Below, piece after piece: positions 2,629 to 27,187 of a stretch of 27,321 bases of DNA. Origin of the DNA: Candidatus Vampirococcus lugosii (GTDB taxonomy: Bacteria > Patescibacteriota > Gracilibacteria > Absconditabacterales > Absconditicoccaceae); the NCBI RefSeq assembly GCF_018420025.1, contig NZ_JAEDAM010000003.1:1-27321 (forward strand), given 5' to 3'. Position 1 is the stretch's first letter. Every line of letters begins with the position of its first letter. The translations under genes and the position numbers were made by a program. Below the pieces are notes generated by a model, which ran no database searches, was not told the origin of the DNA, and was given only the letters and a program-made list of their open reading frames with translations.

Positions 2629-4602
2629 ATGAAGAAAATAATTTTGTTTTTTATGTGAATATCTTTTTTGTTTTCGATATCTTATTGAAATAACGAATAT
2701 TATAATAGATTAAATTCTTGAGAGAAATTAGTTGTTGATATATATATATCTGAATGATATAATAATGTTTATAGAAATTCTGCTAGACGAAATAATAAAG
2801 GTTATATTATACATAATTATAAGCGTTATGAAATTTCTTATGATCAATATAAAGATCAGATTATACAAAATCTAAATGATGCAATATCTGATGATAATAG
2901 TGATTTTGAAAATTCAATTTATTTGTGAATTCTTAACAGATTATGATCTGGTGAATATTTTTCTGAAGATACAGAAGAAAGATGAACATATAATAATGAT
3001 GATATAGGTTTAGATTATTCTTGTATATTTCCAACATGAGAGAATAATAGACCAGAATGAGAATGAGTAGAATATTGTAAAGATTGATGTAAACCAGTAC
3101 CTGATGCTGTACAGCCATCCCCTAAACCAAAATATCCATATTGGAGATATGTGGATTGAAATTTAGATACTGAATGTACATGGTCATGCAAAGAATGATA
3201 TTCAAAAAAATGATATTGATGTGTATCAGGTGTTGAATATGAATTGTCAAATAATGTATTATCACCTGATGCTAGAGTAGATATTAGAGTTGCTTGACTT
3301 AAAGAAGATAATGCTTTAGTATGTCGGTCTGTGCATCAACATCCTAATGTACCTGATGCAGTGAATCCTACTAAATGTGATAATCCACCAACTAATTATG
3401 TAAAAGTTTCTGAACATAAAGAATGAGCTTGATGAATATGATCTTGGGTTTATAAAGATTCAGAACGAAGAGCAACAATACATTATGATAAAATGATTTA
3501 TGATGAATGAATTCAAGTTCAATCACATATGTATAATGAATCTACTTGACAAAAAGGTTCTAGTTGAATTATACATTCTTTATGAAATGACTCAAGTTTA
3601 GATCATAATGATGATGCAAGAACTTGAAATGAAGATAAATATGGTTGTAGGTGACTTACACCAGTTGGTGAAAAAGTTATAAAATGTTGATATGGTGGTT
3701 GTAGTGATGATCTTATTGATGAAGATCTTCATGGTTGACATATTTGGGCATATTTACCTTCAAATACAGGAAATCCTAATGAACTTTGATCATGTAAATG
3801 GGCATGTAAAGATTGATATAAACCGGATTGAAATAGATGTATTCCTTTTGAGGAACGAAAAAAATTATGAGGTAGTGGTGTTCAAATATCAAGTGATACA
3901 TTGACACCAGATTCAAATGTAAATGTTGTTATTCATTGACTTAGACCAAATAATTGATGGATATGTCAGTCTGTACATGCACATCCTAATGTGCCTGATG
4001 CAGTAGATCCTACTAGATGTGATAATCCTCCGACTAATTATAAAAAAGTTTCAGAATTAGTAAATAATTCCAATTGGAGATATGATGGTCTTATGTATAA
4101 AACAGAATTGAAGTATAATCCTAATGTTCATGCTGAATGAATTAAATTACAATATGCTGCATATACTGAAGGTGTTTGAGGTATTCGTTGAAGTGCTCGT
4201 TATAGTAAAATTATTAAAGTATCAGAACAGACATCTCAGCCTCAACCAAATAATAATTGATGAGATATTAATATTAAATTATCAAGTAATGAATTAAAAC
4301 CAAATTCAAATGTAAATCTTGAAATTAATTGAATTGAAAAATCTAGTTCATGGATATGTCAGTCTGTACATGCACACCCTAATGTGCCTGATGCAATAGA
4401 TCCAGGTCGTTGTAGTAATCCTCCAACTAATTATAAAAAAGTTTCAGAATTAAAAGGTTCTTGGGTATACCAAAATTGATCTTTGAAAACAGAATTGAAG
4501 TATAATCCTAATGTTCATGCTGAATGAATTAAATTACAATATTCTATTTATGACGAAAATACTTGAAAAAAAGGTTCTAGTCAAGTTATTAATGTTAAAT
4601 AA
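2629..4602 (+). CDS. Secreted Cys-rich repeat protein (657 aa): signal peptide, two C-x-W-x-C-K-[DE]-G-Y EGF-like knots and three ~115-aa repeat modules
   Basis: I translated the ORF codon by codon and found no TAA or TAG in frame, and many TGA codons read as Gly. The N-terminus MKKIILFFMGISFLFSISYG looks like a signal peptide. A conserved module C-x-SVH-x-HPNVPDA-x2-P-x2-C-x-NPPTNY-x-KVSE occurs three times. I recognise no known family. Confidence 0.75.
3229..3579 (+). repeat. Intragenic repeat module 1 (divergent copy)
   Basis: It encodes ...LVCRSVHQHPNVPDAVNPTKCDNPPTNYVKVSE...EGIQVQSHMYNESTGQKGSS, which aligns with modules 2 and 3. Confidence 0.7.
3877..4221 (+). repeat. Intragenic repeat module 2
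   Basis: It encodes ...WICQSVHAHPNVPDAVDPTRCDNPPTNYKKVSEL...TELKYNPNVHAEGIKLQY. Long stretches are nearly identical to module 3 at the nucleotide level, offset by 393 bp for the first block (3961-4059) and 387 bp for the second (4100-4156). Confidence 0.8.
4261..4599 (+). repeat. Intragenic repeat module 3
   Basis: It encodes ...WICQSVHAHPNVPDAIDPGRCSNPPTNYKKVSEL...TELKYNPNVHAEGIKLQY...TGKKGSS. The stretch aaaacagaattgaagtataatcctaatgttcatgctgaatgaattaaattacaatat is identical to the corresponding stretch in module 2. Confidence 0.8.
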
Positions 4603-10370: not shown

Positions 10371-13238
10371 ATGATCAAAAGAAAAAAATCATTTAGAAAA
10401 ATAAAACTGTTTTCAAAAAAAAGATGAAGACCTAGAAAAAAAAATCATATAAAAACTTGGATATTTTTGTTTTTGTTCTTATTTATATTTCCTTTTATAA
10501 TTTGATCTATTTGGTTTTATAATAATATTTGGGTTCCTTTACCAGATATTTCTGAAATTGAAGATATTCCTTTTTCTGAAACTTCTCGTATTGTTGATAG
10601 AAATTGAGAAATTCTTTATGAATTATATGAAGAAAATAGAAGTTATGTTGATTATGATGAAATTTCTATTAATATGATTAATGCATTGGTTGCTATAGAA
10701 GATAGAAATTTTTGGACTAATCCGTGAATTGATGTTAGATGAATAATTAGAGCATGAGTTCATGATATTGTTAATTTATGACAAGATCTTCAGTGAGCAT
10801 CCACATTGACTCAACAATTAATTAAAAATCTTTTGTTGACTAATGAACAGACTATAGAAAGAAAATTACAAGAAATAGTTTTAGCAATAAATTTAAATTG
10901 ATATATAAGACAACAACTAAAAAATTCTTATTGAAATTTGGATGATGAAACTTTGGATAAAAAAGTTAAAGAAAAAATTATTGAATTATATTTAAATTAT
11001 GTTTTTCTTGGAAATAATTCTTATTGAGTAGAAGCAGCTAGTGATACTTATTTTAGTAAATCAGCTGAAGATTTGAATATACTTGAATCTTCAATTATAG
11101 CATCTTTACCTAGATCACCCTCTTCTATTAATCCTTACAATAATGTTATAGAACTTATGTGAGAAGTAGTTGTAAATGATGAAAATTGAGAATTGGTACA
11201 TTTGGAAGAAGATATAAAAGAATTTGCATTGGAACAAATACAAATAAATTTAGATAAATCTAGTATGGCTTTTCATAATTCTACAAATTCTGTTTTAAAT
11301 TTTTTGAGGTGATTATTGAATTTTAAAGCTGAATATAATTGAGAAGAATATAATATTAAATATAAAATTTGAAGAAAAGATTTAGTTTTGATAAGAATGT
11401 TTGTTGATTGATATATAAATCAAGAAGAATTTACAAAAGCAATTATAGATTGAGCAAATATTTCTTTTGTCAAAAAAGATGTAAATATTAAAGCACCACA
11501 TTTTGTTTTTAATGTTATAGAGTATTTGGAAAAAGAATATTCATCAGAAATTTTAAAAAAGGGTTGACTTACTATAAGAACAAGTTTGGATTATTCTCTT
11601 CAGCAAAAAGCTGAAGCATCAATTAGAGAAAATATTGAAAATATAAATGAACAATGAGCAAATAATGCATCAATGATTTATGTAGATACTAATAATTGAG
11701 ATATACTTTCCTATGTATGATCTGCAGATTATTTTAATGAAGATATAGATTGAAATGTAGATATGATTAAGTCTATAAGACAGCCTTGATCTACCTTGAA
11801 ACCATTGATTTATGCAAAGGCATTTATGGAAAATAATTTTACACCTGAAACACCGATTTATGATATTCCTATGAGAATAGGTGGTAATAGACCAAATAAT
11901 TCTGATTGACAATTTATGTGAATTATGCCTTTAAGTAAGGCATTAGCTTATAGTAGAAATATACCAGCCATTAAAATGTATTTTATAGTTGGTCAGGAAA
12001 AAAGTCTTAAAAAGTTTTTTGCCGATTTATGATTTACAAGTTTTGATGATGATGTTACTTATTGATATCCTATGGCATTATGATCATGAGAGATAAAAAT
12101 GATAAATTTGGCAAATGCTTATTCTCATTTATCGGTAAATTGAAGTCCTCCAAAAATAAATCCTATATTAGAAATTACTTGAAATGATTGATCAATTTTG
12201 TATAGAAAACAAATTGAAAGACAAAAAGAAGTAATAAGTCCTTGAGCTTCATATCTTATATGGAAAATATTATCTGATATAAACAATATGCCAAGTTCTT
12301 GGAGAAGTAATTTTGTTTTTGATTGAATAGATTTTGCTTTAAAAACTTGAACTTCAAATATAAGAACAAATTCATGAAATTCTTTGCCAAGAGATTGATG
12401 GTTAGTTTCATATACTCCTAATTCTGTATGAATTTTTTGGGCATGAAATACAAGATGAGAGGCAATGAATCCTTGAACTTATTGATGACGGGTAAATGCA
12501 CCAGTTTGGAAAACTTTTTTTACTAAATTGAAGGATGAATGATTGATTAAAAATTCAAAAATAAATCCTGTTGAAATAAAAAATGTTTCTATAAATGAAA
12601 TAACTTGAAAATTGGCATCTTCAAATACATTGTCTAATTTAATTGTTAATACTGTTGCTCATATAAAATCTATTCCAGAAAAAGATGATTCAAGTTTTAA
12701 ATCAATATATGTTGATACTCTTTGTGATTGAGCTGTTAGTGATAATACACCATCAAGTGATCTAAAACAAGCTTATTTAATAGAACCAGAAACAATAATG
12801 CCTTCTTGAAGAGATAAAAATGATGTAATTCAATGGCGAAAAAATACTTGAATAAATAAATATTCAGAAATTATTTGAGCTCCTGTTTTTATAGATGAAC
12901 CAACTCAAAAATGTCCTGAAAGAGCTATAATTGCAAATGAATGATATATTTCTGTATCTATTGAAGATTTAGATGATTTAGATGATTTGTTGAGAAAAGA
13001 TTCTATAAAATATTTTGTAAGATCACCATTTGAAATAACTAATGTTAAAATTTTTGTTTGAGGTTTTCAAGTATCAACACAAGATTTTTCTTGACTCAGA
13101 AAAGTTACTGATAACAGAGATTTTTCCGTTCCTAGAACAGTTAGATTTTGAAGAACTACATTGCAAGTTAAAGCAACAGATTCTATGTGATATACTGCAA
13201 GTGATGAAGTTGTAATAAATTTAACTTGAGAAAATTAA
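10371..13238 (+). CDS. mrcA: Class A penicillin-binding protein (bifunctional glycosyltransferase/transpeptidase, PBP1A/1C-like, 955 aa) with an extra C-terminal beta-rich domain
   Basis: The N-terminus has a TM anchor. GT51 motifs: AIEDRNFWTNPGID, GASTLTQQL, RKLQE and YLNYVFLG. Transpeptidase motifs: STLK, SRN and KTGT (its Gly is TGA). About 290 aa follow KTGT. I translated the ORF fully and found no TAA or TAG in frame. Confidence 0.9.
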
Positions 13239-13294: not shown

Positions 13295-13300
13295 TTGTTT

Positions 13301-13372
13301 GGTGCGGTCGTCTAATGGATAGGACATAGTCCTGCGAAGACTAGAATCCAGGTTCGATTCCTGGTCGTGCCA
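13301..13372 (+). tRNA. tRNA-Arg (anticodon GCG)
   Basis: The acceptor GGTGCGG pairs with TCGTGCC, using three G:U pairs. The D arm is GTCTAATGGATAGGAC. The anticodon stem TAGTC/GACTA is perfect and the loop is CTGCGAA. The T arm is CCAGG-TTCGATT-CCTGG, the discriminator is A73, and no CCA is encoded. Confidence 0.75.
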
Positions 13373-13418
13373 TATTGTTTTAATAAAAAAATTATTTTAG
13401 AAATTCTAATTTATATAA

Positions 13419-16400
13419 ATGTTTAATTTTTTGATAAATAAATTTGTTTGAGATCATCACAAAAAAGAAATAAATAAAATTTTACCTATAGTTGATAAAA
13501 TTAACTCTATTTTTGAATCTTATAATGATTTGAGTGATGAAGAATTGAAATTAAAAACTAAAGAATTTAAAGAGAGATATGATGAATGAGAAAATTTAGA
13601 TGATATTTTACCAGAAGCTTTTGCGACCGTTAAACAAGCTTGTAAAAGACTTAATTGAAAAGAATTTGAAATTGAATGAGAAAAAAAAGTTTGGGATATG
13701 ATTCCTTATGATGTTCAATTATTGGGTTGAATAATTTTGCATAAATGAAATATTTGAGAAATGAAAACATGAGAAGGTAAAACTTTGGTTGCAACCCTTC
13801 CTATTTATCTTAATGCAATTTCATGAAAATGAGCTCATCTTGTTACTGTGAATGATTATTTAGCAATTAGAGATGCACAGTGGATGTGAGTTTTGTATAA
13901 TTTCTTATGATTAGAAGTTTGATCAGTTACTAAATGAACTGCTCAAGAAAAAAGGAGACAAGAATATTGAAAAGATATAACTTATGTAGAAAATTCTGAA
14001 TTATGATTTGATTATCTTAGAGATAATTTGGCTTGATCTTTGGATCAGAGAGCTTTATTGCGAAGACCTCTAAATTTTGCTATAATAGATGAAGCAGATA
14101 GTATTTTGATAGATGAAGCTAGGACACCACTTATAATTTCTCAACCAAGTGCTGAAGCAACAGATAAATATTTAACTTATTCAAAAATAGTTAATAATTT
14201 AATACCTTCAAAATGAAAAAAGAAAAAATCAAAAACATTTTTACAAGAAATTATGACTGATGATTCAAATGAAGAAGATAATGTAGAAGAAAATGATTAT
14301 TATATAGATGAAAAAATAAAATCCATACAATTAACTTGAAAATGAATACAAAAATTAGAAAATATTATTTGAGTTGAAAATTTATATAAAGATATTTGAT
14401 ATGATGAAATTCATCATATAGAAAATGCTCTAAAAGCAAAAGCTGTTTTTCAAAAGGATAAAGATTATATTGTAAAAGATAATAAAGTTATGCTTGTTGA
14501 TGAACATACTGGTAGAATAATGCCAGGTAGAAGGCTTTCTGAAGGTCTACATCAAGCAATTGAAGCTAAAGAATGAGTAAATATTCAAAGAGAATCAAAA
14601 ACTGTTGCAAGTATTACTTATCAAAATTTTTTCAAGCAATATAAAAAAATATCTTGAATGACTTGAACAGCAATAACAGAAGCTGAAGAATTTGGTAAAA
14701 TATATGAATTGGATAGTTTACCAGTACCTACAAATAAACCTACTATTAGAGTTGATAAATGAGATAAAGTTTATTTTTCACAAGAAGCAAAATGGAATGC
14801 AGTTATGGAAGCTATTAAGTTTTATCATAATATTTGACAACCTATTTTAATATGAACTTCAAGTATTATTACTTCTGAAACAGTTTCTATGAAACTTAGA
14901 AATTCAAATATAAATCATTATGTGCTTAATGCAAAATATCATGAACAAGAAGCAAATATTATTAAAAATGCTGGTAAAAGTAATAGTGTGGTTGTAGCAA
15001 CTAATATGGCAGGTCGTGGTACTGATATTAAATTGGAAGATTGATTAAACGAAAAATTAGCTATAAATTATTCTAATTGGATAAAAAATAATATTGATAA
15101 AAATAATATTTCATTAAATATATTTTCTAATATTGAATTAGATTTGATTATTAATTGAATTAATAATGTATTTTCTAAAAATTTTGAAAATTGAATTAGT
15201 AGTAATTTAAAATCTGAATTATGAAATTGAATAAATATTGAAATTATTTTCAATAAGTCAAAAAAAGATAAAAATGATTTACTTTGTAATATAAATTTTA
15301 CTAAAAATTCTAATACAGAAACTCTTGAAGAAGATTTACATTTTGGTTTGTCAATAGTAGCAACTGAAAAACATGAAAGTAGAAGAATAGATAATCAACT
15401 TAGAGGTAGATCAGGTAGACAATGAGATCCAGGTGTTAGTCAATTTTTTGTTGCACTTGATGATGAAATTATGAGAAAAATGTGATGAGATAAAATAAAA
15501 ACTGTGGCTGGTATGTTGTTATCAAAAGATGAATTAAATAGTATGGAACTTACTCAAGCTCAATTTACTTCATCTATAGAAAGATCACAAAAACAAATGG
15601 AGTGATGGTTGTTTACTTGAAGAAAACATCTTTTTGATTATGATAGTGTGATTAATAAACAAAGACAAAGAATATATTCCAAAAGGGATTTAATATTGTT
15701 TGCTAGATCAAATGTAGAATGAAATGAGCAAATTATAGAAGATTTTGGTATAGATTTGGAATGATTTGATATAAATAATGAATTTAAATCATTTATTATT
15801 GATGTAATTGATAAAATTGTAGATACATATACAGCAAATCAAACTTGGAATATTGGTGATATGATCTCTAATTTTGAAAAGATTTTTCATATAAGTTTAG
15901 ATAAAACAGATATTAAAAAATATAATAAAATAATTGATTTTAAAAATTTTTTAAATATTAAAATCACTGAATTTTATGATGAAAAAAAATCTCAATTAAA
16001 TGAAGATATTTTTCAAGATATTACAAAATCAATTTATTTAAGAAGTATAGATAATCTTCGGGTTGAACATATTGATGAAATGCAACAATTAAGAGAAAAA
16101 GTTTGATTATTTTGATATGCACAACTTGATCCATTGATAATGTACAAAAAAGAAGCATTTGAAAAATATCAAAAACTTTTATTTAATGTGAAACAAGAAT
16201 GTATTTCTTCATTTCTTAAACTTGATACAGAAAAAATTCAATCTAATTTTGATTTTATAAATTGAAGTAATCAAGAAAAATCAAATAAAGTAGTTATAAA
16301 TAAAATAGAAGAATCCGATAAAAATAATAATTCTGAAAAACTTATAAATACTGAAAATAATGTTGAAAATATTGATAAAAAAGAAAAAACTATAGAACTT

Positions 16401-16682
16401 GTTACACAAAAAAATAATAAAACTAATATCTCAAATGATACTAATAATGATGATTGAATAGAAGTGATTACATATGAAGATGAAACTAATATTTCAAATG
16501 ATACTAATAACGATGATTGAATAGAAGTAATTACATATGAACCTACACAAAATAATTATTGAAGTGAAAATAATAAAAATTCTGTTATTGAAAATAATAA
16601 GTCAAAATATAAAGCTAAACCTAATCAAGCTTGTCCTTGTGGTAGTGGTAAGAAATATAAAAAATGTTGTTGAAAACATTAA
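13419..16682 (+). CDS. secA: Preprotein translocase ATPase SecA (1087 aa)
   Basis: Motifs found: [14 protein letters not shown] (Gly is TGA), [91 protein letters not shown] and the C-terminal zinc-binding tail [16 protein letters not shown]. Confidence 0.95.
16422..16547 (+). repeat. In-frame 63-bp tandem duplication (2 copies) in the SecA C-terminal linker
   Basis: Copy 1 (16422-16484) and copy 2 (16485-16547) differ at 3 positions over the first 57 nt. They encode [19 protein letters not shown] twice. Confidence 0.85.
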
Positions 16683-16710
16683 AATATATAGTTTGAAACT
16701 TAAATAAAGA

Positions 16711-16738
16711 AAGTGTAATATTTTACACTTTTTTATTT
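16711..16738 (+). terminator. Rho-independent terminator after secA
   Basis: A perfect 8-bp stem, AAGTGTAA (16711-16718) with TTACACTT (16723-16730), has a 4-nt loop and is followed by TTTTATTTT. Confidence 0.6.
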
Positions 16739-16830
16739 TATATGAATTTTAATGTAATGATTTTTATTTTTATTCGTATTATATATTGTATATAATAAAA
16801 TACATTTATTTAATTTATTAAAAAATATCT

Positions 16831-19800
16831 ATGAAAACGAAATTTATCATTTTATCTATTTTTTCTTTATTTTTAATTTGATTTATGCTATTTAATTTAA
16901 ATAATATTACAAATACAGTTAAAGCTAGTTATTTAAATAATACTTTTCAAGATTCTGAATTTGATGAAGCTTTGGATTGGATGCATAATTCCAAGTTAAC
17001 TAAATATAATAAATCAAATGAATTTAGACCTATTGATTCTCTTACTAGAGAACAGGCGGCAAGTTTTTTTGACTGATTTGCATCTACAATTTGAAAAGAT
17101 TGACAAGATAATTTAGATTGTGATTTTGATGATTTGGATGATGCAGATGAAACATTAATTGATAATATACAAAATGTTTGTAAATTATGAATTATGAAAT
17201 GATCTTGAAATAAATTTTATCCAAAAAAATCTATTAATAGAGCAGAATTTTTTACAGTAGTTGTTAGAACTTTGGATTCTTTCAAAAATGAAGGTCTTGA
17301 TCCATGGTGGAAAGAATATTTTGAGACAGCTCAAGATTTATGACTTACAAATGAAGATAATGTTTATGCACAAGATAGAAATATTTTGAGATATGAAGCA
17401 TGATTGATTTTGTATAGAGCTAAAAATGAAACTAATTTAAATAATTTAAAAGATCCTAAAGTGGAAGAACAAGAAGAACAAGAAAGAGAATTAAAATCTT
17501 TTCAGATAGATTTTGAACAATCTATGGACACTAAGTCAGTTTTATCAAATATGAGAATTTATCCTGAAATAGAATATGAACTTGTTTGGAGTGAAAATGA
17601 TTCTATAGCTGAAATTGCTTTTTCAAATAATTTTGATGAAGATACTGAAGTTTTGGTAAATATTAGTGACGATGCCAAAAATTCTAATTGAGAAAAACTT
17701 ACTCAAACTTTATCAAAAAAATTTAAAGTAGATTCTGCTCCTCAAATTGATTTTGTTAGTCCTGAATGAATAATTACTGATGTTAATAAAAATATTACAG
17801 TAAGATTTACATCTCCTATGGTTTCATTTACTAATTTGGATAATCAAGCTGAGTGTCCTATACAGATAACCCCTAATATTGATTGAAAATGTGTTTGGAT
17901 TACAACAAGTACTTTTCAATTTAGACCTGTTAATTCTTTCCCTAGATGAGCAAATTATTCAATATATATTCCATCTTGAATAGAAAATATTTCTGGAAAT
18001 AAAACTATTAATTCCAAAAAATTTGAGATTAAAACTCCAGATTTTGAACTTATTTCATCTCCAAAAAATATAAATAAAGATGATGATTTAGTTTTAGTTT
18101 TTAATGATAAAATTGATTTAGATAAATTTAAAAATAATTTTTCTATTTCTAATTTTGATAATTCTGAACTTGATTTTGAATATGCAAAAAAAGAAACTAA
18201 TATTGATTGACAATATGATGTTTTGACTAATTCAGTTTCTATTTTTCCAAAAAATTGAGATTGGTGATATAATAAAAAATATCAAATAAGTATAAATTCG
18301 TCTTTAACTTCAAAAAGATGAAATTTATGATTAAAACAAGATATTAGTAAGTCATTTATAACAGATAGTTTTTTAAGTAATTATAGTTTATTTATTTATG
18401 AAGATTTAAATTATGAAAATTTGAATTTAGAATGAAATATGAGATTCTCTAATTTTAAAAATATTATTTGAAATGATATTATTAATAAAAATAATCCAAA
18501 TATATTATTGTATTTTAATGAAGAAGTACCACTTGATAAATCATTATTTGAATTAGATTATGATTTTGATTTGTCTTATTTTTTGATAGAAGATAATGAA
18601 CAAATTGTAGAAGATAAGAAATCATTAGTTTTAAGTATTAATTGAAATATAAGTAATTCACTTGATGTTAAAATTAAAGCTTCTCAAATAAGTAGTAGTG
18701 ATGATATAAATTTATCTTTCACAACAAAAGAAAAAAATAAAATTTTAGATTTTGAAATGATAAATTACAAAAAATCTTGTATTACTTTTGAAAATAAAAT
18801 TCATCAAGATGAAATTAATTATGATGCTTTTGATTTTTCTGAATATTGAAATGTAAGATCTATTCAAGAAATTTATAAATATCATAGTGAACAAGCATGT
18901 TCCTATGAAGTTTGAAAAAATAAATATTTATTGTATACAAATTTAAATCCTGAAACAGATTATGTTTTGAATATATCAAATAATTTACTTGATATAGATA
19001 ATTATAATTTAGATAAAGATTATTCTTATGAATTCAAAACACCAAAAGCTATGAATGAAGATAAAAATGTAAGTTTTATTGATCAACAAGATTTGGTTTT
19101 GATTCCTAGTTCAATAAATCCTATAACAGTATGAATAGCTACTACAAATATAGAAAAAGTTAATATAAAGGTTTGTCAATGAGATCTTGAATTGATTTCT
19201 AATAATAAATTTAGTAATTCTAATGATTGTAAAGAAAAAATTCTTAATATTGAAAATCTTTGATTTGAACCAAAAATAACTGTTATAGATTTGCAAAAAG
19301 TTTTTGGAAAAGAATTTGGTAAAAATTTAATAAGTTTTGAAATATCAAAAATAGATGCTGATAAAACTAAAAGAGAACTTGAAAATGATTCAAATTTAAA
19401 TAAATCTTTTTTTGTATCAGATATATCTGCTACTTTAAAAAATGCAAAAAATTCTTTATTGTGGCTTAGAGATTATAATAATTGAAATAATTTGACGGAT
19501 CAAATAGAAAAAATAGAAATTTATAATTCTAAATATAACTATGATCAAAGAAAATACTTTTTAGAATTAGAAAAAGAAATTGCTTTTAATTCTTTATGAA
19601 ATTGACTTTATAAATTCTTTAATTCTATTGATTGAGCTAGTTTAATTGTTATTACATTAAAATCTGGGCAAAAGACTTTAATTAAAGATATTTCATATTT
19701 TTATGGTAGTAAAAATATTAATACATATTTATTTACTGATAGACCTTTGTATAGAGCTTGAGATGAAGTAAATATAAAATGAGTAAGTAGAATACAGGAT

Positions 19801-22800
19801 GCTAATTGATATATATTAAATAGAAGGAATTTTACACTAACAGTTACTTGACCAAAAAGAGAAGAAATTTTTAAAAAATCTATTAATTTAGATGAAAATT
19901 CTTCTTTTGATGTAACTTTTGAACTTCCTCAAGATTCTAATTTATGAAATTATAATGTTAGTGCTTGAGCAAATTGATGACATACTTTTTCTGTACAAGA
20001 GTTTGAAACTCCTGATTTTAAGGTTGAATCTGATTCTCAAGAATCTAATTATTTACAAGGACAAAGTGCAAAAATAAATATATCATCTGAATATTATTCT
20101 GGTTTACCTATGGCAAATGCAAATGTAAATTATACTGTTAAAGCACAAACTTATAATTTTGATGCTGTTTGATATTCTGATTATCATTTTGGTGAACAAA
20201 AAGATTTTTGGTGATATAGATACAATTATTGACAAATAAATAATAATGAATTTGTAGAATCTTGAGAAGATATTTTATGAAGTGATTGAAAATGAGTTAT
20301 AAATATTGATTTAAAAGAATATAATGAAGATAAAATTTATACTGTTTCAAGTATTGTAAAAGATCCAAATACAAAAAAAACAGTTTCTAATAATTCAAAT
20401 TTTAAATCTTTGAGATCAGATATTTTTCTTTGAATGAAATTTGATAATTATTTTTATAATTATAAAGATACTACAAACATTGATTTTGTAAGTCTTGATA
20501 TAGATTGAAATTCAATATCAAATACAAGATTTGATTTTAAAGTTTACAAAGTTGATTATGAATATGATAAAATTTCTAAACAAAGAAAAAGTAAAGAAAA
20601 TTTATTATATGAAGAAGAAATTGTTAGTAATTGACAATGAAAAGCAAGTAAAGAGTTTGAATTTAATGAAGTAGGAGAATATAGATTTGAAATAATTACT
20701 AAAGATTGAAAATATAAAACTACAAAAATATTTTATATATGAGCTCAAGGTTTACTTTCTCCTATTAACGAAAATAATGAAATATCTATAAATTCAAATA
20801 AAGAAAAATATGATGTATGAGAAAATGCTGAATTTATTATTTCAAGTCCTTATGAAAATATTCAAGCTCTTGTTACAGTGGAAAAAATGGATCAAATACT
20901 TAATTATGAAATAATAGATATTGATGATTTAAATCAAGTTTATAATTTGAAAATAGAAAAAAGATATTTGCCAAATTTTGAAATAAAAGCTTATTTGATA
21001 AAAGATGTAGCTGTAAATCAAACTGCTTTACAAGAATTAAAAGAAATTAGATTATCTATGCAAGAGATAGAACAAGAATTGCAAGAAAGATATGAATGAA
21101 TAATAATTCCTTTTCCAGAAATAATTTATGATAGATGAATTTTGCCACCAATATTTCCTATTCCACAAGAATTATCTGATGAAGATAAAGAATTATATGA
21201 AAAATTATCTTCTTATAGATATAAAGAACAAGAACTTATGCAAGAAATATTGCCATCATATTATGAATGAAGTAAAAAAATATCAGTAAATATTGATTAT
21301 GTTAAACTAAATATTCAAGTAAATCTTAATAAAAATTATTATTTGCCAAGAGATGAACAAGAAATTACTTTGACTATTGAAGATAATAATTGAAATCCAG
21401 TAAATGGACAAGCAACTATTAGAATAGTTGATGAAAGTTTACTTGCTTTGATGGATAATACTGTTGATATTGTAGAAGCTTTCTATTCTGAGGTTGAAAA
21501 TAGAGTATGAACTTCTTCAAATTTATCTTATCTTATATCTAGAATATTATTTACACAAGATTCATTTGAAAATGAATTAGAAGGTGTTCCTGATTGAATG
21601 TGATGAGAGATGTTGAAAAGAGAGGAATGAGTTGTGTATAGTGAAATGAGTTTTGGTGATGCATCTATAGCTAATTTGGGACTTGATTCAACTGATAATG
21701 AAATTGAAGATAATAATGAAAGTGAAGATAATAATGAAACTTTCATAAGAGAGGATTTTAAAGATTTAGCTTATTGGCAAGCTAGTGTAGATGTAAAAAA
21801 TTGACAAGCTGTTATTAATGTTGATCAATTACCAGATAATTTAACAACTTGGGTAATAGATTGATTTGTTTATACTGATAATACTTATGTTTGAATGTTC
21901 CAAGATGATTTTAAAGTTCAACAAGATATAGGTATATTATCTCAATTTCCAAGATTTTTGGTAAGTGGTGATGAATTTATTATGTCTGCTTTGATAGTTA
22001 ATAACACTAATCAAAAACAAGTTTTGGATGCTAATTTGCAAATGACAAATTCAAATATTTCTCAATCTAATAAACAAATTGAAGTTCCTGCAAATTCTTC
22101 TGAATTAGTTGAATTTGAAGTAAAAATTAATTCTTTACCAAAAGATGTAGATATTAATGAATTTAATTCTCAAATAATTCTTTGAGTATCAAATGAAAAT
22201 TTATCTGATACAATTAGAGTAAATAGAGCGATAAGACAACCTAGCACTTGAGAATATGTATTTACTAATTGAAGTACAAAAGACACTTCTTTTGAAGAAC
22301 AAATTTATTTGCCAGATTATTTGGAAAAAAATGCACATTTAGATATAAGTTTATGAGCTAGTATTTTAACTAATATTTTACATAATTTACAAGATTATAT
22401 TAGTTATCCTTGAGATAATTTAAATTCAAGATTAAACTTTTTGGAAATATCAAGTAGTTTAAAAAATCTTTTTGAAGATTTGTGAGAAATAGATATTTTG
22501 AATTCTTATCAAATAAAAGATTATGATGGAAATACTTATTCAATAAAAGATATTGAAAATATGATTTTGTCAGAATTGCCTGAATATTTGGAATCTAATT
22601 GAGGATTATCTTATTTTAAAGAATGTTATTGGGCAGATGATTGTAGTAATTTTAATTTAACTGCTAAATTTTTGAAATTAGATTTACAAGTAAATTGAAT
22701 TGATAATTCAAAACTTATAAATTATTACAAAAATCAACTTACACAAAAGATTCAAAAATATAATATTATTGCTAAAAATGTTTCTAATTTTATTCCTTTG

Positions 22801-23937
22801 GCAATTCATTGAGAATATGATTATATAAGAAATAATTTAAAAAATAAAGAAAATTATACTAATTTGGAAAAATTAGAATATATTAAACTTTATAATTTAA
22901 TGTCAGATAATTGAGAGTATTCAGATAAGTTTTATCAAGATTTATTAAATAATATATTCATAGAAGCTAGATCCTCACTTTTACCATCAAATAGTAATTA
23001 TATAAATAATCTTGTATCTACTTCTATGATGCTTTCTATAATGTTAGATAAATCAGAAATTGAAAAATTACAAACTGAAAATATGACTAGATTTTTATTG
23101 GAAAATAGAAATGAAGATTGAAAATATTATAATTGAGATATATCATATATTATCAAAGCATTAAATGATTATGTAAATACTACTAATGAATTAGATGATG
23201 TAGATTTTACTGCTTGAGCTTATTTGAATGAAAATTTGATAAGTGAAACTGAATTTGATATGTCAAATAGATTCTCAGTTTTTAAAGATAAAATTGATAT
23301 TAGTGAATTAGTTAATTGGTGAGAAAATAATTCATTAGGTTTTGTTAAGGAGGGTAGTGGTAAATTATATTATGATGTATGAATGAGATATTTCTTACCA
23401 AATAATGAAATATCTGCAAGAGATGAAGGTTTGATTTTGACTAGAAATTATTATGATTATGAAGAATATAACGAAGCTTATGAAAAAAAATGTAATTCTT
23501 GGTGGTGGGGACCTGCTATTTGTACAAATGAAAAAGTGAAAAATATTGATCCTATTACTAATGCAAAAAAATGAAATTATATAGTATGAGAATTGCAATT
23601 AATTGTTCCTTATGAAAGAAATAATGTTCAAATTAAAGATTATTTGCCAGCTGGTGCTGAGGTTTTGAATGTTAATTTTGATACAGTAAGTGATGATGTA
23701 AATGATGTAACTTGACAGACAAGTAATTATTGGAGATGATTTGATCATATTGAACAGTGAAATGAAATGATTTATCTGTATGCAGATCATTTGAGTGCAT
23801 GAACTTATACATATACTTATGTAATATCAGCAAGTCAAGTATGAGAATTTAATTTAAGACCTGCTGTAGCAGAATTGATAGAAAGACCAGAAATTTGGGG
23901 TAGAAGTTCTTGAATGATATTTGAGATAAATAATTAA
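16831..23937 (+). CDS. Giant surface protein (2368 aa): signal/TM segment, three SLH repeats, Ig-like domains and a bacterial alpha-2-macroglobulin (A2M/MG-domain) core lacking the thioester motif
   Basis: I translated every codon and found no in-frame TAA or TAG over 7.1 kb. SLH-like repeats: FRPIDSLTREQAASFF, FYPKKSINRAEFFTVVVRTL and NILRYEAGLILYRA. A2M hallmarks: FTDRPLYRAGDEVNIKG, VQEFETPDFKVE, YYSGLPMANANVNYTV, RIVDESLLAL, REDFKDLAYWQASV...LPDNLTTWVIDGFVYTD, GSGKLYYDVGMRYFLP, DYLPAGAEVLN and YTYTYVISASQVGEFNLRPAVAELIERPEIWGRS. Confidence 0.85.
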
Positions 23938-23959
23938 TTATTTGTTATATTATAAAAAG

Positions 23960-23986
23960 ACCAGTTTCAAAAAGCTGGTTTTTTTA
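23960..23986 (+). terminator. Rho-independent terminator after the A2M-like gene
   Basis: ACCAGTTT (23960-23967) pairs with AAGCTGGT (23972-23979) around the loop CAAA. It is followed by TTTTTTT at 23980-23986 and lies 23 nt after the stop. Confidence 0.7.
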
Positions 23987-24077
23987 TTGAAAAAAATATT
24001 TTAATATTTATAAACTATTTCTTATCTTTGGAAGATATTTTTTTAAAAAAATTTATAAAATTTATATATAAAATATT

Positions 24078-25370
24078 ATGTATATATGTTCAAATTGTTG
24101 ATATGCAACATTGAGTAAGCTTTGAAAATGTCCATCTTGTTGAGAATTTTGAACTTTGGAAAAAGATGATACTAAAAATAAAGTAAAAAAAACAGCACAA
24201 AAAACTACTTTAACTTATGGAACAAGTTTAAAAACAAAATCAATACAAGATTCAAAATTTTTTGATATAAAAAATAATGAATTAAAAAGGGTTTATCAAA
24301 ATTGAATAAAACAATGATGAGTTTATTTGCTTGGATGACAACCTTGAATATGAAAATCAACTATTATTTTACAAATTATTCAAGATTTATTGGAAAATAA
24401 TAAAATTAATATTTGATATTTCTCTGGTGAAGAATCTCAAGATCAAATATATTCAAGATTTAAGAGAATAAATAAAGAAAATAATACTCAAGATCTTGAT
24501 ATATATACAGCAAGTTCCCTTGAAGATATTGTACAAACTATTGCAGAAAATGATTATAATTTTTTTATAATTGATAGTATACAAACAGTATATTCAAGTA
24601 ATATTGATTGAATAGCATGATCACCTTCGCAAGTAAAATTTTGTTCAGAAAAAATATGAGAATTTGCTAAACAAAAATGAATAACATGTTTTATTATAGG
24701 TCATGTTACTAAATGATGAGAAATTGCTTGACCAAAATATTTGGAACATATAGTTGATATGGTTTCATATTTGGAGTGAGATAGATTTGGACAATATAGA
24801 TTTCTTAGATCTATGAAAAATAGGTTTGGTAGTACTGATGATGTAAGTATTTTTGAAATGTGATTATTTTGATTAATTCCTGTTTATGATATTAAAGAAA
24901 GAATTATAAATACTGCAAATACTAGTATTCCATGAAGTGTTTTTACAATGTGAATAGATAATGGTAGACCAGTTATAGTAAATTTGGAAGTTTTATTAAA
25001 TAAGACAAATTATAAATACCCTCAAAGAATGGCAGTATGAATTGATAACAATAGATTAAATTTAGTTATAGCTATATTGGAAAGATATTTAAAATTAAAT
25101 TTATGAAATTTTGATATATATGTAAATCTTCCATGAGAATTTAAATTTTATGATTCTGGTTTAGATTTAGCATTAGCTTGAGCAATATTATCTCAATATC
25201 AAAATAAATTAGTAGATAAAAATATTATTTTTATATGAGAAATTGGTTTAGGTTGACAGATTCTATCTAGTAAATTGCATGAAAAAAGAAAAAAAGAGAT
25301 TCCAAGAGATTTTGAAATAATAGATTTTAATAATTTAAAATATATTGTAGAATTAAAAAATTTAATCTAG
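24078..25370 (+). CDS. radA: DNA repair protein RadA/Sms (430 aa)
   Basis: It has an N-terminal C4 zinc finger (CSNCGY...CPSCGEFG), Walker A LLGGQPGIGKST (several Gly are TGA), IIDSIQ, HVTKGGEIAGPK, the KNRFG motif and a Lon-like C-terminal domain (GIDNNRLNLVIAILER...GEIGLGGQI). It ends in TAG, the only TAG stop in the window. Confidence 0.92.
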
Positions 25371-25498: not shown

Positions 25499-27187
25499 AT
25501 GTCTATAAATTTTAAAAAATGATTTAATTCAAGAAATAATTCAAAATTAGAAAAAATATCTAATATATCCAAAAAAGATTTATTAGATATATTATCTTAT
25601 ACATGAGTTCTTGAAAGGCTTTGAAATAGTGAAAAAAGATGAAATATATCTAAATTTAAAAAAAATAATAATTGTTTAACTGAAAGTGAATTTAAAAAAA
25701 TTAATAATATAGTATGAGAATATGTTGAACAGTATTGACAAGATATTGATTCTCTTATTTATGATAATTATGGAATAAATTTTGATGAAAAAATAGATTT
25801 ATTATTTAAACAAATATCAAAAGTATTATCTGAAAGAAATAGTGATATATCAGATTATTTATTAAATAATTGAATAAATTTTCATAAAAATCTTGATTTT
25901 ACTTGATGACTTAAATTTGATATATGAAATTTTGAAAATCTAGAAAATGAAGATTTAAAGAAATTTTTATTTAATCCAAATTTTACAAGATTAGAATGAG
26001 AAAAATTATATAGTCGTGGTTATTGATATTTTTTTAATTTAAATTGACTTTATAAAGATGAGAATTGATTTATGAAACTTGAATCAAATATATTTTTTGA
26101 TACTGTTTTTTATTATTACAGAGATATTAATAATTTATTACAAAGTTTTAATAATAAAAAAATTAGTAATATTAGTGAAGAAGAAAAAAAATCTTTATTA
26201 ATTTTATTGGAACATTACAAAAATATTTCTTTTTTCTTGATTAATATATTTACTAATATACAAAATCCAGAATTTTTTAAAAATTCTACTAAAATGAAAT
26301 GACAACAATTTCAAAAATATTATGAAAAAAATGACAACAACCCTTTTAATAATAAAGATTTTTTTGAAAAAATTCCTAGTATAATATCTTATTTGGAATC
26401 CGAAGCAGAAAAAACTGTTGATTTATTTAATGATATTAATTTATGATTTGATAATAAAATAAATTTTGAGCAAGAAAATATATGAAAAGATATGTTTGAT
26501 AATATTTGAGATTTTTTTGATTATTTAAATAAAGTAGCAGAAGAAAGTAATAATGAAGGTGAAGTTAAAAATATTAAAAAATTACAAAATAAAATTTCTA
26601 TGTCATTTATTAGAATCATAAGAGAACAAGATAATCCTGCCAAAATGTTATTAGCAGCAACTAATTTATTATCAAAAATGGATTCAAAAGATTTTGAAAA
26701 AGATTTAGTTTTGTTATGAGTTTTGTATGGTGGTATAGAATATCCATTTTTTGTGAAATATATGATTAAAAGATTATGATTAAGTGAAAAATCTTTAGAT
26801 ATTTATCTAACTACAGTGTCTAATTATAATATGAGAAATAAAAAAGAAATAGCAAGTATATGAAATTATCCTTGTAGTAAAGAAATAGATTGATGATGAA
26901 AAAATTTTTTGGTTCTTGATGATAATATTTATAATGGCTGAACTTTGCAATCATTGATAAATCAATTATGACAAAATAATAATATAATAGATGCAAGTGC
27001 AGTAGAAGTTTGACTTAGAAGAACAAATTTCTCAAAACTTAAAGAATGAAGTAATATGTCTTTTCTTCTTTCAAAAGTAAAAATGTCTGCATCAACAACT
27101 CCTATATCAAAAAAAATAAATAAATATAATAATTTAATTTTAAAATATATTTCAAATCGTTTGCCAAATATTGTTGGTAAACCTTAA
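25499..27187 (+). CDS. Hypothetical protein (562 aa) with a C-terminal phosphoribosyltransferase-like (type I PRT) domain
   Basis: I translated every codon and the frame is open under code 25. The C-terminal ~180 aa show the PRT-fold pattern LVLLGVLYGGIEYPFF...GKNFLVLDDNIYNGGTLQSL, a degenerate PRPP-binding loop. I recognise no family for the N-terminal ~380 aa, which are Asn/Lys/Phe-rich. Confidence 0.55.

Follow-up and report, generated by a model that had tools for sequence, protein, structure and literature searches.

An SLH-bearing, thioester-less alpha-2-macroglobulin in the epibiotic predator Candidatus Vampirococcus lugosii: a candidate non-covalent protease trap or decoy

To our knowledge, all characterised bacterial alpha-2-macroglobulins (A2Ms) are periplasmic proteins of diderm bacteria, tethered by lipid or by Mag partners. 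The type I proteins, such as Escherichia coli ECAM (YfhM) and the Salmonella A2M (Sa-A2M), are covalent thioester traps, whereas the type II protein MagD of Pseudomonas aeruginosa traps proteases non-covalently after bait cleavage, and is a periplasmic protein held at the inner membrane by MagB and encoded in the six-gene magABCDEF operon. Candidatus Vampirococcus lugosii is an ultra-small epibiotic predator of Chromatiaceae, belonging to the Absconditabacteria within the candidate phyla radiation (CPR), and has a single membrane, a Gram-positive-type wall and a thick fibrous coat. Here, we analysed positions 1 to 27,321 of its contig NZ_JAEDAM010000003.1 (hereafter, the window, 27,321 nucleotides), in which the gene at 16831-23937 on the forward strand encodes an A2M of 2368 amino acids (aa). 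For the architecture alone, we are highly confident that the product is a secreted, A2M-fold protein anchored by S-layer homology (SLH) repeats and devoid of the thioester; for the whole statement, that this wall-anchored A2M is a protease trap or decoy triggered at its bait and working non-covalently, we estimate a probability of about 0.55.

The gene itself is not new. It was listed as Vamp_6_203 (2368 aa), an alpha-2-macroglobulin for which protection against host proteases was proposed, and the supplement of the same study adds two A2M paralogues, 1895 and 1871 aa long; the terms "SLH" and "S-layer" are absent from that work (Moreira et al., 2021; PMC8080830). Furthermore, BLAST homologues have been reported in Absconditabacterales, other Gracilibacteria, Paceibacteria and WWE3 (Zhou et al., 2022; PMC9793634). 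In the literature outside subscription journals, we found no description of an SLH-A2M fusion, of the thioester loss or of the hairpin insertion described below, in agreement with the first-pass annotation of this DNA, which knew of no such architecture; the SLH Pfam match of the protein is already present in precomputed public annotation. Novelty is therefore confined to the fusion, the A2M identity and the host-protease role having been published in 2021, and the SLH-A2M, a genuine variant present throughout the lineage, belongs to a known kind of protein whose presumed defensive role is also on record.

Coding sequence and N-terminal SLH module

The gene and the features of its anchor region, all on the forward strand, are as follows.

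16831..23937 (+), A2M gene, complete open reading frame (ORF) with ATG start, 2368 aa under code 25
16831..16926 (+), predicted Sec signal peptide, aa 1-32, with MKTK, a 17-residue hydrophobic core and the putative cleavage site TVKA↓SY
16945..17427 (+), triple SLH module, aa 39-199, from Pfam PF00395, profiles, repeat comparison and model; repeat 1 at aa 41-87 (motif TREQ), repeat 2 at aa 97-150 (NRAE), repeat 3 at aa 156-199 (LRYE)
17437..17490 (+), charged disordered linker, aa 203-220, predicted local distance difference test (pLDDT) below 50, 15-70 residues long among orthologues

When TAA and TAG were taken as the only stops, the window resolved into a dense, same-strand gene array, in which the single intact 2368-aa ORF previously described at these positions was recovered as the largest gene. 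The ORF contains 88 in-frame TGA codons, and the standard bacterial code (table 11) breaks it, leaving almost no long ORFs across the window. When standard-code A2M homologues were aligned to the protein, 212 of their residues at its TGA positions were Gly and 10 were Trp, with invariant Gly in several columns, which supports the reading of TGA as Gly (code 25) in this gene; code 4 (TGA as Trp) was dropped on the same counts. Several database orthologues carry W for G at TGA sites, having been translated with Trp, and W and G were merged in conservation and tree calculations. The resulting translation matches, with 100% identity, the NCBI entry "alpha-2-macroglobulin [Candidatus Vampirococcus lugosii]".

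The N-terminus gave a significant SLH match on residues 1-230 (Pfam PF00395, 41.5 bits, E 1.3e-10), to which the repeats contribute unequally, with repeat 2 scoring well at 31 bits, repeat 1 weakly at 13.7 bits and repeat 3 giving no Pfam match by itself. All three were nonetheless supported by comparison of repeat profiles with hhalign (probabilities of 95% for repeats 1 and 2, and 96% for repeats 2 and 3), in which the TRAE-type Arg falls in register in TREQ, NRAE and LRYE and aligns to the TRAE motif of Sap. Across 18 family members, repeats 1 and 3 always carry this Arg, and repeat 2 has R or K. The module also matches the SLH domain of Bacillus anthracis Sap (3PYW, E 3.5e-9), and a profile of the 18 family N-termini, 14 of which match Pfam SLH individually, reaches Sap at E 3e-17 and SbsB at 2e-9; positions 4-153 of this profile align with the entire three-SLH domain of P. 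alvei SpaA (6CWC, E 5e-8), and the full trimers of Sap and SbsB are covered likewise. In the AlphaFold model, the SLH stretch is helical, with pLDDT of about 85-94. Thus, the three repeats which the first-pass annotation had placed at 16960-17424 (aa 44-198) were essentially right, as was its statement that the N-terminal hydrophobic segment has no lipobox Cys, since residues 1-34 contain no Cys at all. At the position of the predicted signal-peptide cleavage, orthologues carry the motif NLKA↓D.

Regarding wider use of this anchor, a module hidden Markov model (HMM) identified the same SLH module on other proteins of the lineage, at the N-terminus of one that also carries DUF285 (P0040) and in another consisting of SLH only (P0054). 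In a large, Big_5-containing protein of 1400 aa (P0043), the triple-SLH module is C-terminal (residues 1231-1398), so that it works at either protein end. The occurrence of the module at the head or tail of unrelated proteins fits a general anchoring use, and 8-10 SLH proteins per Absconditicoccaceae genome have been counted in other work. A word-indexed search with the 177-aa SLH module alone returned one 233-aa SLH protein only and did not recover the parent. Concerning the wall ligand, the word "pyruvyl" is not present in the supplements of the V. lugosii paper. About 5 kb upstream of one A2M orthologue (P0016) there is a UDP-GlcNAc 2-epimerase gene (PF02350; L001, 3423-4790). In Firmicutes, this enzyme supplies ManNAc for SLH-binding wall polymers, and the gene may be relevant to the ligand of the SLH anchor.

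Macroglobulin body, thioester site and bait segment

Beyond the linker, the following features were delimited on the forward strand.

17497..19710 (+), about seven all-beta Ig/MG-like domains, aa 223-960 (Pfam Big_5, DSSP, pLDDT, Foldseek)
19723..20742 (+), macroglobulin (MG) block from Pfam and models: MG2 at aa 965-1050 (Pfam, 67 bits), a bMG5-like domain at aa 1065-1190 (models) and bMG6 at aa 1204-1304 (Pfam)
20782..21450 (+), A2M bait-region domain (A2M_BRD), aa 1318-1540 (Pfam PF07703, E 7.9e-12)
21022..21258 (+), helical hairpin, aa 1398-1476 (about 80 aa), inserted into a bait-region domain loop
21553..21738 (+), putative bait, aa 1575-1636, 62 aa, disordered, acidic and hypervariable, directly before the PF00207 domain
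21695-21739, 18-bp tandem repeat in the putative bait, 2.5 copies, 96% match, encoding DNNESE units
21772..22020 (+), A2M family domain, aa 1648-1730 (Pfam PF00207)
22387..23187 (+), TED-like all-helical domain, aa 1853-2119 (model helices and Foldseek alignment)
22405..22428 (+), degenerate thioester site YPGDNLNS, aligned to YPYGCxEQ of relatives
23533..23892 (+), C-terminal bMG10, aa 2235-2354 (Pfam PF17973, E 1.2e-17)

The Pfam matches to MG2, bMG6, A2M_BRD, A2M and bMG10 were all above curated cut-offs, and Big_5 matched three times, best at aa 302-392. No Pfam match to the TED family (PF07678) or to A2M_recep was obtained in the protein, and the TED fold is seen in the model alone, where the helical domain is flanked by beta domains as a CUB/TED insert. 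Consequently, of the full A2M core with a C-terminal receptor-like domain that had been proposed earlier, the body from MG2 to bMG10 stands and the A2M_recep assignment does not.

Two overlapping AlphaFold halves were built with family alignments, covering residues 32-1200 (pLDDT 79.8, predicted template modelling score, pTM, 0.46) and 1170-2368 (pLDDT 82.4, pTM 0.66). Searched with Foldseek against the PDB, as the first-pass annotation had suggested, both halves had ECAM and Salmonella A2M as top matches (5A42, 4U48, 4ZIQ, 4ZJG). The N-terminal half matched ECAM 5A42 at 7.9e-22 and the MG0-NIE-MG1 fragment of ECAM (4ZJG) with a target TM-score (TMt) of 0.48, and the C-terminal half matched 5A42 at 3.6e-47 over about 1300 columns, TED-like region included. 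In this context, aa 223-960 are the counterpart of ECAM MG0-NIE-MG1 plus about four extra domains; the approximately 750 aa that had been described as Ig-like or unassigned are accordingly Ig-like, and are assignable to Ig/MG-like domains of the ECAM MG0-NIE-MG1 type together with extra Big_5-type ones. By query TM-score (TMq), the C-terminal half superposes at 0.49 on trypsin-activated ECAM (4ZIQ), at 0.44 on the A2Moo intermediate (7S64) and at about 0.31 on native ECAM (5A42); the closer fit of the model to activated forms could reflect an AlphaFold bias, or a resting state with no thioester to bury.

In comparison with the fold, sequence similarity to solved A2Ms is weak. A single-sequence phmmer search of the whole protein against the PDB returned A2ML1 (1.6e-9) and Sap only, not ECAM, and the family profile matched ECAM at 1.6e-5, with ECAM residue about 344 aligning with query residue about 965. 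The connection with ECAM and Sa-A2M is thus drawn from the comparison of folds, and the protein is a divergent A2M member, recognised mainly by domain profiles and fold.

At the thioester site, alignment with CxEQ-bearing homologues showed replacement of Cys by Asn, Glu by Asn and Gln by Ser, and CxEQ was present at this position in none of 33 orthologues. The earlier comparison with thioester A2Ms such as ECAM thus failed at the reactive site, CxEQ being missing here and in all clade members. With the thioester lost, covalent tethering of proteases as in ECAM is not available, and any trapping must be non-covalent.

In contrast to the lost reactive centre, the putative bait is retained and enlarged, measuring 60-80 aa in the clade versus 15-30 aa in outgroups. 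In the family alignment, it has the lowest conservation and the greatest length variation of the mature protein, and its pLDDT in the C-terminal half model is about 30; the 18-bp repeat within it suggests that slippage drives the variation in bait length. The helical hairpin, modelled as helices at 1397-1420 and 1450-1473 around a disordered, Pro/hydrophobic-rich tip (aa 1423-1442, GIIIPFPEIIYDRGILPPIFPIP), was aligned in all thioester-less clade members and is absent from Parcubacteria-type and other bacterial A2Ms. The most conserved part of the protein is the N-terminal Ig-like domain at aa 301-390, with the invariant Cys342 and Cys354, and such invariant Cys pairs fit an extracytoplasmic protein.

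Orthologue family and genomic surroundings

About 33 full-length orthologues (2240-2455 aa, 33-49% identity) were recovered from independent NCBI, ENA, JGI and Logan assemblies, and 13 further loci were found in GTDB representatives labelled Gracilibacteria, Absconditabacteria or Patescibacteria. The SLH-plus-A2M arrangement was identified in about 30 independent assemblies (lengths 2320-2455 aa), and so recurs in other code-25 genomes, across Absconditabacteria/Gracilibacteria, a point for which the first-pass annotation had suggested a survey. With the module HMM, SLH was located N-terminally in nearly all orthologues; the clade members devoid of it comprise four with a hydrophobic helix only, one with a lipobox-like ITSC and one with a signal peptide only. 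Over about 37 clade members the A2M body is kept at 33-49% identity despite the thioester loss, which argues for a retained function.

Beyond this family, an exhaustive HMMER search showed a sharp drop, followed by a very large set of proteins of 2000-2250 aa. The next relatives share 26-31% identity over the C-terminal 1200 aa and belong to Parcubacteria (Nealsonbacteria, Staskawiczbacteria), Pacebacteria and other Patescibacteria, as retrieved by a homologue search seeded with P0069. Among 111 such relatives of at least 2000 aa, CxEQ is kept in 104 and a transmembrane-like segment lies within the first 110 residues in 84, and the SLH module is found in 0/111. The long format is the norm among other CPR A2Ms, hundreds of which show it; hence, the excess of about 700 aa over typical bacterial A2Ms noted earlier holds against ECAM but not against other CPR A2Ms (about 2150-2250 aa), for which it is normal, and the specialities of the clade are the SLH anchor and the thioester loss.

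In a crude neighbour-joining (NJ) tree, built with no support values and leaving out MagD/YfaS sequences, the thioester-less clade is monophyletic and sister to P0065-like proteins, in which CxEQ is combined with a membrane-helix anchor. Members with only a helix branch from within SLH-bearing lineages, indicating a secondary anchor swap. The grouping with thioester-bearing CPR A2Ms suggests, in a tree of this scope, that the thioester was lost independently of type II A2Ms. The closest thioester-bearing relatives (P0065, P0114, P0133, P0164) have the disulfide motif of the N-terminal domain in common with the query. They show Trp at the TGA-Gly sites of the query, and so probably come from TGA-recoded genomes translated with code 4.

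In the window, the A2M gene sits between secA, upstream, and radA, with a hairpin and U-run on either side.

16703..16737 (+), hairpin and U-run after secA, RNA fold -12.1 kcal/mol, z -5.0
23952..23987 (+), intrinsic-terminator-like hairpin and U-run after the A2M stop, -16.2 kcal/mol, z -6.6

Both hairpins came from reading and folding the flanks, a consensus terminator scan of 16500-24200 having found none. The hairpin after secA sets the A2M gene apart as its own transcription unit, and the one after the stop agrees with the terminator of its own that the first-pass annotation had credited to the gene. Two genes upstream of A2M there is a class A penicillin-binding protein (PBP) gene with transglycosylase and transpeptidase domains (10371-13238, +), whose C-terminal extension of about 240 aa has no Pfam match and no PbpC-type C-terminal domain. 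On four orthologue contigs, the neighbours are entirely different, unrelated housekeeping genes, and no pbpC pairing, mag operon, nearby csaB or any synteny is conserved; the context is consistent with neither the A2M-pbpC pairing of type I nor the mag operon of type II. An 811-aa transpeptidase is encoded three genes upstream of the closest orthologue (P0002).

Other features of the window were also recorded. The secA gene (13419-16682) has a long Asn/Asp-rich C-terminal extension before its zinc-binding tail, and inside this extension there is a 63-bp tandem duplication (94% identical) at 16420-16541. A nine-tRNA cluster (Gln-UUG, Met, Gln-CUG, Leu-UAG, Asn, Thr, Asp, Glu, Val) lies at 336-1488 and a lone tRNA-Arg(GCG) at 13300-13373, between the PBP gene and secA; none of these tRNA genes has the UCA anticodon needed to read TGA. 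The gene at 2629-4602 (+) contains 43 TGA codons and encodes a secreted protein of 657 aa, rich in Cys, which has no Pfam match and three internal repeats that contain CQSVHAHPNVPDA.DP.RC.NPPTNYKKVSE, and at 25499-27187 (+) there is the gene for a 562-aa protein with a C-terminal phosphoribosyltransferase domain and 380 unassigned N-terminal aa.

Proposed function and comparison with characterised systems

We propose that the protein would be exported by Sec, with probable cleavage of its signal peptide, and that the N-terminal SLH trimer would hold it non-covalently on a cell-wall polymer, the flexible charged linker and about seven Ig/MG-like domains carrying the remainder outward. The C-terminal approximately 1400 residues would constitute a complete A2M/TEP body, made up of MG domains, the bait-region domain, the CUB/TED insert and MG10. 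Once a protease had cleaved within the long, disordered, acidic bait (aa 1575-1636), the rearranged body would retain or sterically block the enzyme non-covalently, by analogy with MagD, so that the epibiont wall and surface proteins would be protected at the predator-prey interface. A single membrane and a thick fibrous coat make outward display of an A2M on the wall coherent. The trap reading rests on the retained and enlarged putative bait, on the full A2M domain set kept over long divergence and on the MagD precedent.

Several points weigh against this proposal. The reactive centre that defines A2M traps is gone, and in Salmonella A2M trapping was abolished when the thioester was inactivated. 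MagD works in a six-gene Mag complex, whereas mag partner genes were seen neither by the A2M gene nor on the four orthologue contigs. Since four to six clade members have no SLH module, the SLH anchor is not indispensable to the function of the family. Moreover, an NCBIfam scan of the full protein gave no match, the sequence similarity to characterised A2Ms is as weak as the A2ML1 match above, and the pTM values leave the inter-domain geometry of the models uncertain.

With the thioester lost clade-wide, the fold could have been repurposed as a structural or adhesive coat protein, i.e., a scaffold or host-binding part of the fibrous layer that glues Vampirococcus to prey and sister cells, with no protease inhibition. 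Many Ig-like domains plus an SLH anchor are typical of S-layer and surface-coat proteins, and giant surface proteins are held to build the fibrous coat (Moreira et al., 2021; PMC8080830). Conservation also peaks in the disulfide-containing Ig-like domain (aa 301-390) rather than in the trap body, as would be expected for a specific binding site, and the clade-specific coiled-coil hairpin could mediate protein-protein contacts. We nevertheless consider a coat role, the main alternative, unlikely, given that a hypervariable, disordered bait-like segment is kept, and even enlarged, at the canonical position, that the full MG/CUB/TED/MG10 set shows no domain loss, and that trapping survives thioester loss in MagD. 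More improbable still is a membrane-to-wall tether, in which an uncleaved signal anchor in the membrane and the SLH clamp would keep the A2M body inside the wall zone. Signal-peptide cleavage is here predicted from sequence, 84 of the 111 nearest outgroup A2Ms have an N-terminal membrane-helix-like segment, and a subclade of the family has reverted to a membrane-helix-only N-terminus. However, the h-region is a short one of 17 residues, and the polar c-region behind it ends in VKA↓S (NLKA↓D in orthologues), the usual signal peptidase I context; in the outgroup, the helix begins near residue 20 and is preceded by a charged cytoplasmic stretch with no counterpart here.

A classical, ECAM-like type I covalent thioester trap would agree with the closest overall fold, that of ECAM and Salmonella A2M, and the class A PBP two genes upstream faintly recalls the A2M-pbpC pairing. 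This reading is refuted at the sequence level, by YPGDNLNS in place of YPYGCxEQ and CxEQ in 0/33 orthologues, and is further contradicted by the lack of a lipobox, by a PBP with no detectable PbpC-type C-terminal domain from which secA and a terminator separate the gene, and by a neighbourhood not conserved in four other genomes; we regard it as very improbable. For an artefact, either an assembly chimera of SLH and A2M or a pseudo-ORF read through TGA, nothing speaks beyond the exceptional length of the ORF and its dependence on a non-standard code. Orthologues from independent assemblies, about 30 of them across NCBI, ENA, JGI and Logan, share the SLH-plus-A2M architecture, which excludes a chimera, the TGA codons fall opposite conserved Gly residues of standard-code homologues, and confident models were obtained for both halves, making the chance of an artefact negligible.

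An extension of the trap proposal, which we put forward as speculative and rather doubtful, is that Absconditabacteria/Gracilibacteria possess an A2M class of their own, externally displayed, in which hairpin and long bait form a new non-covalent capture device. Such a class would appear to descend from thioester-bearing, membrane-helix-anchored CPR A2Ms, the anchor having been swapped to SLH and the thioester lost, with the apparently simultaneous gain of the 80-aa coiled-coil hairpin and of an acidic bait 3-4-fold longer and expanding by repeats. If so, it would be the first bacterial A2M shown acting outside the cell at a predator-prey junction and a third mechanistic type of bacterial A2M, and it could target periplasmic proteases set free from the prey during feeding, or other proteins of the prey.

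SLH anchors are commonly moved by domain shuffling, and unless biochemical work uncovers a new mode of capture, the advance remains incremental. Even so, the family would place an A2M machine outside a single-membrane, wall-bearing, obligately predatory bacterium by means of an S-layer-type module, and would offer a concrete surface component of the fibrous interface where Vampirococcus-like predators contact their prey. It would also represent a natural experiment on thioester-less trapping, with an enlarged bait, no reactive centre and a thioester-bearing sister group for comparison. In addition, it shows that a single passenger can freely exchange its anchor module (membrane helix, SLH, lipobox).

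In comparison with known systems, the V. lugosii A2M follows the type I proteins ECAM (YfhM) and Sa-A2M in the order of MG domains, bait-region domain, A2M, CUB/TED insert and MG10; these are likewise monomeric-type bacterial A2Ms that use N-terminal accessory MG domains for anchoring. Identity is about 12%, and the CxEQ thioester, essential for trapping in ECAM/Sa-A2M, is absent from V. lugosii A2M. Furthermore, ECAM and Sa-A2M are lipoproteins of the diderm periplasm usually paired with pbpC, whereas the V. lugosii protein has a signal peptide and an SLH trimer in a monoderm, has no such pairing and is about 700 aa longer, the excess being made up of about four Ig-like domains, the SLH module, the 80-aa hairpin and a bait 2-4 times longer. 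The type II proteins, MagD and E. coli YfaS, share the lack of a thioester together with a full A2M body and a bait, here a putative one, although V. lugosii A2M has no mag-like neighbours.

The nearest relatives outside the clade, at 26-31% identity, are the uncharacterised A2Ms of about 2150-2250 aa from Parcubacteria, Microgenomates and other CPR bacteria, which are similar in their N-terminal Big_5/Ig domains and in belonging to monoderm-like ultra-small bacteria, but differ in having CxEQ in 104/111 and a Pfam-detectable TED, no SLH, no hairpin and short baits. The anchor, in turn, resembles that of B. anthracis Sap/EA1, P. alvei SpaA and G. stearothermophilus SbsB, with three tandem N-terminal SLH repeats after a signal peptide and the TRAE-type Arg kept in each repeat, repeats 1 and 3 being divergent relative to Sap, SpaA and SbsB (Pfam 13.7 bits and no match, respectively). 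The passenger in V. lugosii is an A2M body instead of an S-layer lattice domain or an enzyme.

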